A stretch of DNA of 21,775 nt from a virus (Duplodnaviria; Heunggongvirae; Uroviricota; Caudoviricetes), in IMG/VR virus record IMGVR_UViG_2565956731_000002, one strand, 5' to 3'. Position numbers and translations under genes: made by a program. Positions 19,134 through 21,775 of the stretch are shown here, in pieces; position 1 is the stretch's first letter; each line of letters starts with the position of its first letter. Under the pieces are notes generated by a model. The model searched no databases and was not told where the DNA came from. It saw only the letters and a list, made by a program, of their open reading frames with translations.

Positions 19134-21194
19134 ATGGCAGTACAGATTTCAGGCGTGCTGAAAGACGGTGCAGGAAAACCAATACAGAACTGTACTATTC
19201 AGCTCAAAGCAAAGCGTAACAGCACCACGGTACTGGTGAACACGGTGGCCTCTGAAAATCCGGATGAAGCCGGGCGTTACAGCATGGATGTTGAGTATGG
19301 CCAGTACAGCGTCACCCTGCTGGTTGAAGGTTTTCCGCCTTCACATGCCGGGACCATTACCGTCTATGAAGGTTCCAGACCAGGTACGCTGAATGATTTT
19401 CTCGGTGCCATGACGGAAGATGATGTCATGCCGGAGGCATTGCGTCGTTTTGAGGTAATGGTGGAGGATGTGGCACGCAACGCTGAAGCCGCCTCTCAGA
19501 GCGCAGCGGCAGCAAAGAAATCAGAAACAGCAGCGGCATCGTCCAGGAACGCGGCGAAAACATCAGAGACGAATGCAGGTAACAGCGCGAAAGCGGCAGC
19601 TTCTTCAAAAACAGCCGCACAAAACGCAGCAACAGCGGCAGAACGTTCAGAGACAAATGCCCGTGCGTCAGAAGAAGCCTCCGCAGACAGTGAAGAGGCT
19701 TCCCGCCGTAATGCAGAGTCAGCCGCTGAAAATGCCGGAGTCGCCACCACAAAAGCGCGGGAGGCTGCAGCAGACGCAACAAAGGCCGGGCAGAAAAAGG
19801 ATGAGGCTCTGTCGGCAGCGACACGAGCTGAAAAGGCGGCAGACCGCGCAGAAGCCGCAGCGGAAGTGACTGCAGAGCCCTATGCGAATATAGTGCCGCC
19901 GCTGCCTGATGTGTGGATACCGTTTAACGATTCACTGGATATGATTGCGGGTTTTTCTCCGGGCTATAAAAAAATAGCTATTGGTGACGATGTGGTTCAG
20001 GTCGCCAGTGATAAACAGGTTAATTTCAGTCGCGCATCAACGGCAACATATATCAACAAATCTGGCGAACTGAAAACGGCGGAAATTAATGAGCCGCGAT
20101 TTGAGTGTGATGGCCTGCTTATTGAGGGACAAAGAACGAACTACATGCTCAATTCGGAAAGTCCAGCCAGCTGGGGGAAGTCATCAAACATGGATGTGCC
20201 CGAAACCGGGACGGATAGTTTTGGTTTTACTTATGGAAAGTTTGTCTGCAACGATTCTCTGGTTGGGCAAACTTCGGCTATTAATATGGCATCAATTGCT
20301 GCAACAAAGTCAGTTGATGTCTCAGGCGATAACAAGTACGTGACAACCTCATGCCGTTTTAAAACAGAACGACAGGTAAGGTTACGTATACGGTTTGATA
20401 AGTATGATGGTAGTGCAACAACTTTTCTTGGCGATGCGTACATTGATACGCAAACGCTTGAAATTAATATGACAGGTGGTGCTGCCGGCAGAATTACGGC
20501 ACGAGTCAGGAAGGATAAGACCACGGGCTGGATTTTTGCAGAGGCAACGATTCAGGCAATTGATGGTGAGTTAAAAATAGGCTCTCAGATACAGTATTCT
20601 CCTGAGCAGGGTGGGGCAACAGTATCTGGTGACTATATTTATCTTGCCACCCCACAAGTAGAGAATGGGCCGTGTGTATCATCATTTATTATTTCAGGAG
20701 GCAGCGCAACGACAAGAGCCAGTGATTTGGTTAGTATCCCCACCAGAAATAATCTTTATAAGTTACCATTTACTTTTTTACTTGAGATTCATAAAAACTG
20801 GGATATTGCACCAAACGCCGCACCCCGCGTGTGGGATATAGCAGCAGCCAATACCGGGCAATCAGCAATTGCAGCAATCAACAGAGGTAGTGGTAAGTTA
20901 TATATGAGTCTGTCAAACCCTTCAGGCTCGTATGTTAATAGCGCAGCGACAGATGTATTTGCAGAGAAAACCACATTTGGATGTATTGCAAAAGCTGATG
21001 GTCACTTTCATGTGGTGACAAATGGTAAAGCGGTTAATGAAGTTTATTGTGAATATAATGGCGTGACCGCTGATAAAAATATCCGATTTGGAGGGCAGAC
21101 GAATACTGGAGAACGACATCTGTTTGGCCATATTCGCAATTTCCGCATATGGCATAAAGAATTAAATGACAGGCAATTAAAAGAGGTCGTATGA
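19134..21194 (+). CDS. stf: Side tail fibre protein: lambda Stf-like N-terminus, short Ala-rich shaft, and a non-lambda C-terminal domain with a lectin-type (laminin-G / concanavalin-A-like) signature
   Basis: N-terminus MAVQISGVLKDGAGKPIQNCTIQLKAKRNSTTVLVNTVASENPDEAGRYSMDVEYGQYSV… resembles lambda Stf; the C-terminal tail …FGHIRNFRIWHKELNDRQLKEVV fits the conserved end of LamG-type jelly-roll domains. ATG at 19134 with GGAG upstream. Confidence 0.75.
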   Translation: MAVQISGVLKDGAGKPIQNCTIQLKAKRNSTTVLVNTVASENPDEAGRYSMDVEYGQYSVTLLVEGFPPSHAGTITVYEGSRPGTLNDFLGAMTEDDVMPEALRRFEVMVEDVARNAEAASQSAAAAKKSETAAASSRNAAKTSETNAGNSAKAAASSKTAAQNAATAAERSETNARASEEASADSEEASRRNAESAAENAGVATTKAREAAADATKAGQKKDEALSAATRAEKAADRAEAAAEVTAEPYANIVPPLPDVWIPFNDSLDMIAGFSPGYKKIAIGDDVVQVASDKQVNFSRASTATYINKSGELKTAEINEPRFECDGLLIEGQRTNYMLNSESPASWGKSSNMDVPETGTDSFGFTYGKFVCNDSLVGQTSAINMASIAATKSVDVSGDNKYVTTSCRFKTERQVRLRIRFDKYDGSATTFLGDAYIDTQTLEINMTGGAAGRITARVRKDKTTGWIFAEATIQAIDGELKIGSQIQYSPEQGGATVSGDYIYLATPQVENGPCVSSFIISGGSATTRASDLVSIPTRNNLYKLPFTFLLEIHKNWDIAPNAAPRVWDIAAANTGQSAIAAINRGSGKLYMSLSNPSGSYVNSAATDVFAEKTTFGCIAKADGHFHVVTNGKAVNEVYCEYNGVTADKNIRFGGQTNTGERHLFGHIRNFRIWHKELNDRQLKEVV

Positions 21195-21469
21195 AAGATT
21201 TAACTTTGAAGTTTCATGACAAACTGCAGTTTAAGGCCTTCCTGTCATCTCTTGGCTGGGCGGAAGATGAAGACCTCCAGAATAAACTGTTAGTTGATGA
21301 AATTGGTTTCACCTACACAGAAACAGGGGTAACAGAAGAGGGAGAACCTGTCTGTATCCGGAATGATGGTTATTTTGTCAACATTCGCATTCTTGATGAC
21401 TTGTTTGATGTTTCTGTATTCTCTGATTATGTCGTGGAGCTGGAAACACCGCTTCGGGAATGGAGCTGA
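21191..21469 (+). CDS. Small acidic hypothetical protein (92 aa), translationally coupled to the tail fibre gene
   Basis: ATGA overlap with the stf stop; Asp/Glu-rich; no recognisable family; occupies the slot where a tail-fibre assembly chaperone is usually found but is half the usual length. Confidence 0.5.
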   Translation: MKDLTLKFHDKLQFKAFLSSLGWAEDEDLQNKLLVDEIGFTYTETGVTEEGEPVCIRNDGYFVNIRILDDLFDVSVFSDYVVELETPLREWS

Positions 21470-21481
21470 AAGGAGGAAATA

Positions 21482-21775
21482 ATGGATATAAGCCCCTTAC
21501 TTCATGCACTTTGTGCTGTGGCTGCGCAGATACTGGTTGGTCTTTTTACCGGAAACTGGGCTTACGGAGCGATAGCCGGTTGTACGTTCTTCATTGCGCG
21601 TGAACATACCCAGGCAGAATATCGCTGGATTGAAATGTTCGGGCATGGCAAGCGAATGAATATGCCGTGGTGGGGCGGTTTTGATCCGCGAGCTTGGGAT
21701 GTGGCAAGCCTGATGGATTTTGCTGTGCCGGTGGTGGCGTGTCTGCTGGTCTGGCTGTTGGTTAATCGTGGGTGA
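21482..21775 (+). CDS. Small hypothetical membrane protein (97 aa, two predicted hydrophobic helices)
   Basis: GGAGG ribosome-binding site before the ATG; hydrophobic segments LLHALCAVAAQILVGLFTG and FAVPVVACLLVWLLV; stop at 21773..21775. Confidence 0.5.
   Translation: MDISPLLHALCAVAAQILVGLFTGNWAYGAIAGCTFFIAREHTQAEYRWIEMFGHGKRMNMPWWGGFDPRAWDVASLMDFAVPVVACLLVWLLVNRG

Follow-up and report, generated by a model that had tools for sequence, protein, structure and literature searches.

The C-terminal receptor-binding module of a side tail fibre in an E. coli prophage and the gene for a small acidic protein directly behind it behave as a two-gene cassette. This cassette is found in at least six virion architectures: in lambdoid, P2-like and Mu-like prophages, in a prophage type that carries it between the head and tail genes, in a siphovirus of Seuratvirus and in a myovirus of the rV5-like group. 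Both the module and the 92-aa gene have matches in records of T5-like phages, too. The locus analysed here occupies the last part of a window of 21,775 nucleotides (the whole stretch of DNA under study) and holds a third gene, for a 97-aa membrane protein, which moves independently of the other two. Our overall reading, which we hold with moderate confidence, is that the fibre ends in a lectin-like, glycan-binding head, that the 92-aa protein is a partner of this head, that the 97-aa protein acts at the envelope and that the copy in this prophage is a relic. What is new here are the small genes, notably the link of the 92-aa family to the head; the fibre itself is ordinary and current understanding is not overturned.

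Lectin-headed side and lateral fibres are among the main sources of variation in coliphage host range and also serve as targets in fibre engineering, and the cassette clearly illustrates how modules are exchanged between phages. Should the head require the 92-aa protein, any chimeric fibre that uses this head must bring the small gene along, and annotation pipelines should drop both the 'hypothetical' label and the split of the fibre gene into a pseudogene and a 'head spike' protein. Members of the 97-aa family, in turn, sit as markers at the 3' end of receptor-binding clusters in temperate phages from three classes of Proteobacteria and represent a candidate new envelope-acting prophage function.

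The locus and its prophage

All three ORFs of the locus are intact in the ORF list of the window, at the positions assigned to them by the earlier note. The side tail fibre gene stf (19134..21194, plus strand, as are all features of the locus given below) encodes 686 aa from its ATG and is the orthologue of phage 21 CPT_21_22; its reading frame opens further upstream, at a GTG at 19128. The gene for the 92-aa acidic protein (21191..21469; PHROG 1361) is translationally coupled to stf, and the ATGA overlap of fibre stop and downstream start that had been proposed can be read directly at 21191-21194. The gene for the 97-aa protein, a small inner-membrane protein (21482..21775; PHROG 1443), is equipped with an AGGAGG ribosome-binding site 12 nt past the 92-aa stop and ends with its stop codon on the last base of the window. 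As had also been noticed, lom is absent between J and stf: J ends at 19075 and is followed only by a terminator-like hairpin with a T-run (19094..19123, plus strand), at the same place where the phage 21 record annotates a terminator. The three ORFs are real, conserved genes and no chance ORFs, with homologues down to ~25-30% identity for the 92-aa protein and ~33-40% for the 97-aa protein.

The locus is 97.8% identical at the DNA level to genes 22-24 of phage 21 and 100% identical to E. coli AF16. Following the sequence past the end of the window, as the earlier note had recommended, revealed sitDCBA and the icd attachment site downstream. The PGAP annotation of an identical genome splits stf into a pseudogene and a 'head spike fiber domain' CDS; this pseudogene call is ruled out by the continuous reading frame. 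Literature searches on the side tail fibre of phage 21, LamG in side tail fibres, phage 21 together with sitABCD, and the protein accessions and PHROG identifiers returned nothing.

The locus forms the distal end of the late operon of a defective, phage-21-like lambdoid prophage of E. coli. The lysozyme gene of this prophage is fused in frame to J, which means that the head genes and most tail genes have been deleted, and the cassette is therefore unable to build a virion here. With the integrase and replication genes frameshifted and IS elements present as well, we give roughly even chances to the view that nothing at the locus is functional in this genome, the three ORFs being inert remnants of a decayed prophage kept only because the decay is recent. 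This view concerns the present copy and not the function of the genes in phage 21, and it has to be set against the intactness of the three ORFs, their identity of at least 99.9% across many clinical isolates, and the fact that Q, a P21-type holin gene (15270..15485) and the late-operon arrangement are all still present. In this prophage, the cassette is probably either a relic or a reservoir for recombination.

A hybrid fibre with a lectin-like head

The earlier note described the fibre as a hybrid, and our analysis bears this out. Residues 1-131 (19134..19526) match PF08400 (E=4.8e-67), and residues 1-94 match the lambda Stf N-terminus (PDB 9e7m; E=6.7e-49), identifying a virion-attachment domain of the lambda Stf type. 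The following shaft (aa 115-252; 19476..19889), likewise as proposed, is rich in Ala (37%) and is spanned by PHROG tail-fibre families; it is presumed to be a trimeric coiled coil. In the RBPseg classification, J-attached fibres of classes TC3, TC4 and TC9 have a coiled-coil shaft, and those of TC4 and TC9 often end in a lectin-like head. The remaining C-terminal region, 434 aa in length, is unrelated to lambda Stf. Neither Phage_fiber nor Caudo_TAP was matched by the fibre in Pfam and NCBIfam scans, in which its C-terminus matches other families; the fibre is thus of the lambda type by its PF08400 N-terminus but not by its tip, which is no Stf-like tip served by Tfa.

This C-terminal, predicted receptor-binding module (aa 253-686; 19890..21191) is a mobile unit that also occurs on fibres with different N-termini, and aligns end to end in 170 loci at 25-100% identity. 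Structure prediction with AlphaFold2, on an alignment of the proteins returned by our searches, yielded an all-beta model (pLDDT 79.3, pTM 0.81) in which the module is predicted to form two beta-sandwich domains. Domain 1 (aa 329-529; 20118..20720; pLDDT 80-96) is of the type found in the head spike fibre of gene transfer agents (GTA): it scores 55.7 bits against NF048003, for which the curated cutoff is 36, and it is homologous to Rcc01080 of RcGTA (6tb9) at E=1.4e-9 with the single sequence and E=1.3e-38 with a profile. It also matches E217 gp45, Pa193 gp46 and 9occ gp17. The name 'head spike' attached to NF048003 describes RcGTA and not the fibre of this locus, in which the domain follows a tail-attachment N-terminus within one protein, is encoded behind J and is not a capsid spike.

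Domain 2 (aa 560-681; 20811..21176) is LamG/ConA-like and ends in FGHIRNFRIWHKELNDRQLKEVV, the ending from which a laminin-G-type fold had been proposed. The ending is real, but the match is weak in this copy, with PF13385 reaching 25.0 bits over residues 560-681 against a gathering threshold of 27.6, and model confidence is modest (pLDDT 58-82). PF13385 is, however, recorded for many homologues of the head, and homologues are named LamG-like. Foldseek comparison of the head model returned CBM40 (E=5.8e-6, target-normalised TM-score 0.59), C-reactive protein, a pentraxin (0.56), and the Hc lectin domain of botulinum toxin, matches for which the search does not give whether domain 1 or domain 2 was aligned. 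Together, the NF048003 score above its cutoff, the homology to Rcc01080, the lectins retrieved by Foldseek and the PF13385 assignments of many homologues support the lectin-like fold.

The earlier note had also considered that the C-terminal domain might be a standard, already described Stf variant without a lectin fold. The first half of this holds, in that the head is already common, whereas the second half is contradicted by the support for the fold. Nor is the head unusual, as had been implied: it is present on phage 21 itself and on lateral tail fibres, among them those of Drexlerviridae, Seuratvirus, T5-like and rV5-like phages, and ~228 phage records, BASEL phages included, carry it. 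O-antigen is the ligand of lateral fibres in T5-like phages and the presumed ligand in Drexlerviridae (PMC8594841), and Rcc01080 binds capsular polysaccharide (PMC7296036, PMC10218006). By analogy with these proteins, the head, which we take to be non-enzymatic, most likely binds a surface polysaccharide, be it O-antigen, capsule or another glycan. Stf would accordingly be attached to the tail tip by its lambda-type N-terminus, extended by the Ala-rich shaft and tipped with the two-domain lectin-like head, which may act as a reversible primary receptor binder on a surface glycan and so speed up adsorption.

Two small genes with different linkage

The 92-aa protein is indeed acidic, as had been noted (pI 4.17; 20 D/E versus 8 K/R), and belongs to a compact, conserved family with the motif MKDLxLKF...GYxVNxR...PxRVWA. 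Its linkage to the head is strict. Among 170 loci fetched via the 92-aa protein with two narrower alignments of its family, the start of the small gene overlaps the stop of a head-module gene by 1 or 4 nt in 168, and the two exceptions carry an IS66-family insertion between the fibre and 92-aa genes. Conversely, all four of the module proteins picked through a fibre search, from P2-like, Mu-like and myovirus baseplate contexts, are followed by a member of the 92-aa family (E 1e-32 to 1e-40). The linkage holds in lambdoid, P2-like, Mu-like and other prophages as well as in the two virulent coliphage loci inspected. Within the phage collection, the 92-aa protein is present in 191 records and the module in 228, with a ratio near 1:1 among enterobacterial phages.

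The position of this gene is the one that a tail-fibre assembly chaperone, Tfa, would hold, and the earlier note had remarked on the absence of Tfa. Indeed, Pfam and NCBIfam scans gave no Caudo_TAP or Tfa match for either small protein. A truncated Tfa can be ruled out for the 92-aa protein, which has no match to Caudo_TAP (PF02413) and belongs to a family conserved over its full length, as can a frameshifted extension of the fibre, given its own conserved start (MKDL) and Shine-Dalgarno sequence. A 74-aa Caudo_TAP remnant comes after the cassette in one P2-like prophage, and in another locus a second fibre with its own full-length Tfa does so. The 92-aa gene does resemble tfa in lying directly downstream of a fibre tip and being inherited together with it, and this co-inheritance supports the notion that the protein works like Tfa without belonging to the Tfa family. 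Of the roles offered in the earlier note, that of a non-canonical fibre chaperone is the one favoured by our results, which make a dedicated factor for head assembly, or an accessory one, the likeliest identity of the 92-aa protein.

Two observations complicate a chaperone role. Firstly, tight co-variation between the 92-aa protein and the head domains is contradicted by mosaic loci, in which the small protein remains 90-99% identical while both head domains drop to ~40%; it does not, therefore, co-vary with the receptor-binding surfaces, unlike what might be expected of a tip-specific chaperone, and the positive Spearman correlations between the small protein and the head domains mostly reflect clade structure. 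Secondly, Rcc01080 is a single-subunit fibre (PMC7296036) with the capsule-synthesis genes rcc01081-86 downstream (PMC10218006), so that no partner of the 92-aa type follows it and a lectin head of this kind may fold unaided. We propose that the 92-aa protein would be made in the cytoplasm in step with the fibre through termination-reinitiation coupling and would serve as a dedicated partner of this type of head, either as a folding and assembly factor or as a head-associated subunit, filling the position that Tfa has with fibre tips of the lambda and P2 types. Its probable recognition target is the conserved module scaffold, not the hypervariable receptor-binding surfaces.

Alternatively, the 92-aa protein may be no transient chaperone but a stoichiometric virion subunit that caps or bridges the lectin heads, comparable to gp38-type adhesins or a retained Tfa. 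Translational coupling to the fibre would imply a fixed stoichiometry. The model of the small protein is confident (pLDDT 93.9) except for lower values in the conserved C-terminal PxRVWA tail, which resembles a docking peptide, and confidence in the monomer model is lowest at aa 253-302, where the module is most conserved, a combination suggestive of an interface. Nevertheless, we regard this alternative as rather improbable; for the lectin head of EmilHeitz, the RBPseg cryo-EM text describes no extra density, in maps of only 7-9.5 Å. Fold searches with the 92-aa model returned no informative relative. A broader idea, to which we give still less credence, is that the 92-aa family is a hitherto unrecognised, general lectin-head partner that stays bound as a cap or switch, masking or organising three independent lectin domains until virion release, with the 97-aa protein, where present, as the membrane-side component of the same system.

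The earlier note had further raised the possibility that the two small genes form an anti-defence or immunity pair. Both proteins are small, adjacent and uncharacterised, and the module recurs together with both genes in Comamonas, Pantoea, Oceanimonas, Oceanisphaera and Chelativorans; this trio is spread over Alpha-, Beta- and Gammaproteobacteria and has its genes in swapped order in one case. The linkage pattern, however, opposes a pair: the 92-aa gene, strictly tied to the head, stands without the 97-aa gene in 83 of the 170 loci and also in both of the virulent coliphage loci that were inspected, whereas the 97-aa gene is found independently behind several kinds of receptor-binding genes, including tailspike and Tfa genes that come without the 92-aa gene. 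PADLOC also returned nothing for either protein at E<=0.1. It is thus very improbable that the two act as a functional pair apart from fibre assembly, be it in anti-defence, in immunity or as a toxin-antitoxin-like moron, and we treat the 97-aa protein separately.

That the 97-aa protein is a membrane protein with two helices agrees with its hydrophobic stretches (~5-38 and 78-95) and with the two transmembrane domains annotated in the phage 21 record, whose protein is 100% identical. It has no match in Pfam, NCBIfam or PADLOC, and ten distant homologues likewise belong to no Pfam or NCBIfam family. A lipoprotein was rejected, as the candidate lipobox HALC has Leu at -1, there is no basic N-region and Cys11 is not conserved in homologues; a holin was rejected for want of a Pfam match and because the prophage already encodes one of the P21 type. 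The gene lies directly behind a P22-like tailspike gene, a Tfa-like gene (Halomonas phiHAP-1), a Leclercia tail spike/fibre gene and a Caldimonas tail protein gene, and in Sphingomonadales homologues adjoin non-phage genes. Given its place behind receptor-binding genes of several kinds, for the most part in temperate phages, a role in superinfection exclusion or conversion is the likeliest. We envisage a separate inner-membrane protein that temperate phages would place at the 3' end of their receptor-binding clusters, and that most likely acts on the host envelope, through superinfection exclusion or through interference with a surface-glycan or entry step.

A competing reading is a late lytic role tied to the receptor-binding proteins, in place of a function expressed in the lysogen; the protein might stop new virions from adhering to the dying cell or injecting into it, or aid the maturation of fibres and tailspikes at the membrane. 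The 97-aa gene often overlaps the preceding late gene by 4 nt in many unrelated phages, and so frequent a coupling to late genes is more in keeping with a late function than with lysogen expression. Moreover, no promoter-like site precedes the 97-aa gene and neither a promoter-like site nor a terminator separates it from stf, and the polar residues conserved in the family (H8, R40-E41, Q44, E46-Y47-R48, W63 and D79) suggest a specific activity. On the other hand, almost every full-length match in the phage collection comes from a temperate phage, no 97-aa gene is present in those virulent phages that were inspected and share the head module and its 92-aa neighbour, and in P22-like phages and phage 21 the gene adjoins the attachment site, a typical moron position. 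We consider a late lytic role unlikely, and superinfection exclusion or conversion remains our preferred reading.

Comparison with known systems

Phage 21 (OL657228.1) is the closest relative, with the same three genes in the same order (CPT_21_22, CPT_21_23 and CPT_21_24) and with sitDCBA and the icd attachment site following in both. It is a complete phage, whereas the window represents a deleted derivative with the lysozyme-J fusion, and its record labels the small genes only as 'hypothetical protein' and 'putative membrane protein'. Lambda Stf and Tfa share with the locus the N-terminal attachment domain (PF08400, 9e7m), the place after J and a small partner gene directly behind the fibre; they differ in that the C-terminal 434 aa of the locus are unrelated, its partner is a 92-aa protein without Caudo_TAP, and lom is missing.

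RcGTA Rcc01080 (NF048003; 6tb9) is homologous to domain 1 (profile E=1.3e-38) and binds capsule polysaccharide. Unlike the fibre described here, it is a single-subunit head fibre of 325 aa with a short N-terminal peptide anchor and with capsule-synthesis genes downstream. Its alignment to the module profile stops at the end of domain 1, with no match to the LamG domain, and residues 2-10 alone have been resolved experimentally. The lateral tail fibres of the BASEL phages EmilHeitz, VogelGryff and KarlJaspers, in contrast, carry the same head at ~40-57% identity, with a member of the 92-aa family directly 3'. BASEL lateral fibres with such a lectin-like beta-sandwich head fall into RBPseg classes TC4, TC9 and TC12, with pseudo-domain D69. 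These BASEL phages are virulent and lack a 97-aa gene, and their fibres differ in the N-terminus and have longer shafts. In their records, the small gene is called 'hypothetical', and in VogelGryff it is a different gene, of 388 aa, that carries the label 'putative lateral tail fiber chaperone'.

Cor of phi80 and N15 and Llp of T5 are small envelope proteins that mediate exclusion and are encoded beside a receptor-binding gene. The 97-aa protein may be a functional analogue of Cor and Llp, as judged from its own place behind receptor-binding genes, although no sequence relation to them was found, it has no lipobox, and it is not bound to one type of receptor-binding gene.

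The side tail fibre and its head

The earlier note had described a hybrid side tail fibre with a lectin-like C-terminus, followed by two small genes, and this observation is confirmed: the coordinates of the fibre (19134..21194), the 92-aa protein (21191..21469) and the 97-aa protein (21482..21775), all on the + strand, are correct. The fibre stop and the 92-aa start do overlap in ATGA, the 92-aa protein is acidic, the 97-aa protein has hydrophobic segments, and lom is missing. Residues 1-131 of the 686-aa fibre are indeed the lambda Stf attachment domain (PF08400, E=4.8e-67; lambda structure 9e7m, E=6.7e-49), and alanine makes up 37% of residues 115-252. 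Residues 253-686 form a module (the head) without relation to lambda Stf. Its domain 1 (~300-540) passes the NCBIfam model NF048003 at 55.7 bits (cutoff 36), matches the RcGTA head spike fibre Rcc01080 (E=1.4e-9 with a single sequence and 1.3e-38 with a profile) and also aligns to the Pseudomonas phage baseplate proteins E217 gp45 and Pa193 gp46. Rcc01080 is a fibre of a single subunit that binds capsular polysaccharide, and its experimental structure covers the first ten residues only (PMC7296036, PMC10218006).

The last domain of the fibre scores 25.0 bits against Laminin_G_3, slightly under the 27.6 threshold; this Pfam family is present in many homologues, some with LamG-like names. An AlphaFold2 model of the head (65 sequences) is all-beta, with pLDDT 79.3 (80-96 in domain 1, 58-82 in domain 2) and pTM 0.81. 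Foldseek searches with this model again returned the phage baseplate proteins named above, together with classic ConA-like lectins, namely CBM40, C-reactive protein and the botulinum toxin Hc lectin domain. Homology and the predicted structure together support a lectin-like head, from which we infer carbohydrate binding. PGAP annotation of an identical genome (L002, 8001-10061) cuts the intact fibre ORF into a pseudogene ('partial, missing C-terminus') and a 'phage head spike fiber domain-containing protein'; the domain models are apparently behind this split, which is an artefact of annotation.

A probable dedicated partner of the head

The 92-aa protein had been noted as belonging to no recognised family. 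It has no match among Pfam, NCBIfam or PADLOC models, its sole family match being PHROG 1361, of unknown function, and when 1.84 billion cluster representatives were searched exhaustively with a profile, just 80 hits emerged, nearly all 85-110 aa long with the motif MKDLxLKF...D.IG...GYxVNxR...PxRVWA. The decisive evidence is gene context. Among 170 loci fetched through the 92-aa family (25-100% identity), the upstream gene overlaps the start of the small gene by 1 or 4 nt in 168, and in these its end aligns end-to-end to fibre residues 253-686; the remaining two carry an IS66-family insertion. The N-termini of these upstream proteins vary, from lambda Stf and P2-type fibre domains to a 671-704-aa protein whose gene lies between those for head and tail, and to proteins of 550-590 aa in Leclercia, Atlantibacter and Citrobacter prophages. 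Conversely, a 92-aa-family gene (E 1e-32 to 1e-40) follows all four module proteins chosen via the fibre search, which sit in P2-like, Mu-like and myovirus baseplate clusters. Across the phage collection, the small gene occurs in 191 records and the module in 228 (tblastn). BASEL records list the small gene as 'hypothetical', and the 'putative lateral tail fiber chaperone' label in VogelGryff sits on a different gene, of 388 aa.

Both head domains are hypervariable and mosaic among E. coli prophages, with ~40% identity where the flanks are near-identical, a pattern consistent with a receptor-binding role. From its gene context we conclude that the 92-aa protein is probably a partner dedicated to this head, with a role in assembly the likeliest, and that it may stay on the virion. 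It keeps 90-99% identity across loci whose head domains drop to 40%; if it acts on the head at all, its target must thus be the conserved scaffold. One P2-like prophage carries the cassette (module and 92-aa gene) followed by a 74-aa remnant of the tail-fibre chaperone Caudo_TAP, and at another locus a second fibre with a full Tfa of its own follows, both matching the usual pairing of fibre and helper genes. What is new here is that the lectin head and the 92-aa protein form a strict two-gene cassette found in many types of virion.

Some phages carry a third gene of 340-390 aa after the 92-aa gene (E. coli prophages L005-L008, ~3887-7369; VogelGryff, L240, 3767-4933; L177, 2918-3958), with a Peptidase_S74 match in L006; the VogelGryff copy bears the chaperone label. 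The entire set in L005-L008 is flanked by capsid genes and the tail-tube gene, a placement that suggests asking whether these prophages carry the fibre on the head or neck. Phage 1W (L003, OM475428.1, 5429-8095) has three 'mobile element' genes, which we read as an IS66-family element, lodged close to the 3' end of its fibre gene. The insertion, shared by 3W, 4A7, Lambda_4C10 and D2, cuts the fibre at ~residue 643 and parts it from both small genes, so that these lambdoid phages are on record with a disrupted fibre.

The 97-aa membrane protein

The 97-aa protein matches PHROG 1443, also of unknown function, and none of the Pfam, NCBIfam or PADLOC models. The two small genes, taken earlier as a possible pair, are not one: the 97-aa gene is absent at both virulent phage loci inspected that have the module and 92-aa gene. 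Its family spans 57 genome loci in Gamma-, Beta- and Alphaproteobacteria, ~14 of which also have the module, with a 92-aa-family member detected in 12 of those. Full-length homologues lie directly 3' of several kinds of gene and often overlap them by 4 nt; the genes in question encode a P22-like tailspike (JEP4), a Tfa-like protein (Halomonas phiHAP-1), a tail spike or fibre (Leclercia) and a tail protein (Caldimonas). In Chelativorans sp. (L190, 2526-4590) the order is swapped, the module protein being followed by the 97-aa homologue (4-nt overlap) and then the 92-aa-family gene. Sphingomonadales homologues stand beside ordinary cell genes, and the family may be of cellular origin. In three such loci (L199, L214, L231) the neighbours are capsule-synthesis, DUF885 and phosphate-transporter genes, and no upstream phage gene was detected.

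Conserved polar residues (H8, R40-E41, Q44, E46-Y47-R48, W63 and D79) point to a specific activity. In the phage collection, full-length matches come almost without exception from temperate phages, and this link, together with the position next to the attachment site, favours a function at the envelope, for instance exclusion or conversion. Coupling to the late genes and the lack of a promoter-like site ahead of the gene would suit a late-cycle role, a less likely alternative.

A common head in a decayed prophage

A lambdoid prophage in decay, sited at icd in E. coli, makes up the window; sitDCBA and the icd attachment site follow the three-gene set, as they do in phage 21. The chromosome of blood isolate AF16 matches the window at 100% identity, and at least 80% of the 2.6-kb region is present in ~450 of 5426 complete genomes. 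The prophage is defective. An ORF of 1196 aa (15485..19075, +), labelled plain gpJ by PGAP, opens with a lysozyme N-terminus (Pfam match, residues 34-83) that continues in frame into the tail-tip protein J. This fusion marks a deletion that took out the remainder of the lysis cassette together with every head gene and most of the tail genes. Both the integrase and the replication genes carry frameshifts. In this prophage the two-gene cassette of head and 92-aa protein is probably a relic. The attachment-site-proximal end (1..3600) holds the frameshifted integrase, an excisionase, IS3 fragments and an ISEc21 (IS110-like) transposase, consistent with long-term decay. A large inverse-autotransporter (intimin/invasin-like) gene (5737..10008, +) and an alpha/beta hydrolase gene (10045..11088, -), probably cargo, lie between the replication genes and the nin region. 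An OmpC/NmpC-like porin gene (13598..14680, -) sits between the Q antiterminator and a P21-type holin (15270..15485), as in DLP12-type prophages.

Genes 22, 23 and 24 of phage 21, annotated 'side tail fiber', 'hypothetical protein' and 'putative membrane protein', share 97.8% DNA identity with the three genes. The earlier note was right to read the head as lectin-like, but fibres of this type are ordinary and widespread. Among the module records are lateral tail fibres from BASEL coliphages of the Drexlerviridae, Seuratvirus, T5-like and rV5-like groups. 'Campylobacter phage' records (MG065692.1, MG065666.1, MG065652.1 and others, such as C13, A12a and C11) also carry the coliphage head and small gene at 40-72% identity in genomes of sizes typical of coliphage groups, and their host labels look doubtful. 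The RBPseg atlas describes J-attached fibres with a coiled-coil shaft, two classes of which are often tipped by a lectin-like beta-sandwich head; that of EmilHeitz, whose fibre is 39.6% identical to the module, was fitted into a low-resolution cryo-EM map. For T5-like lateral fibres the O-antigen is a dispensable primary receptor, and the same role is thought likely for those of small siphoviruses (PMC8594841).
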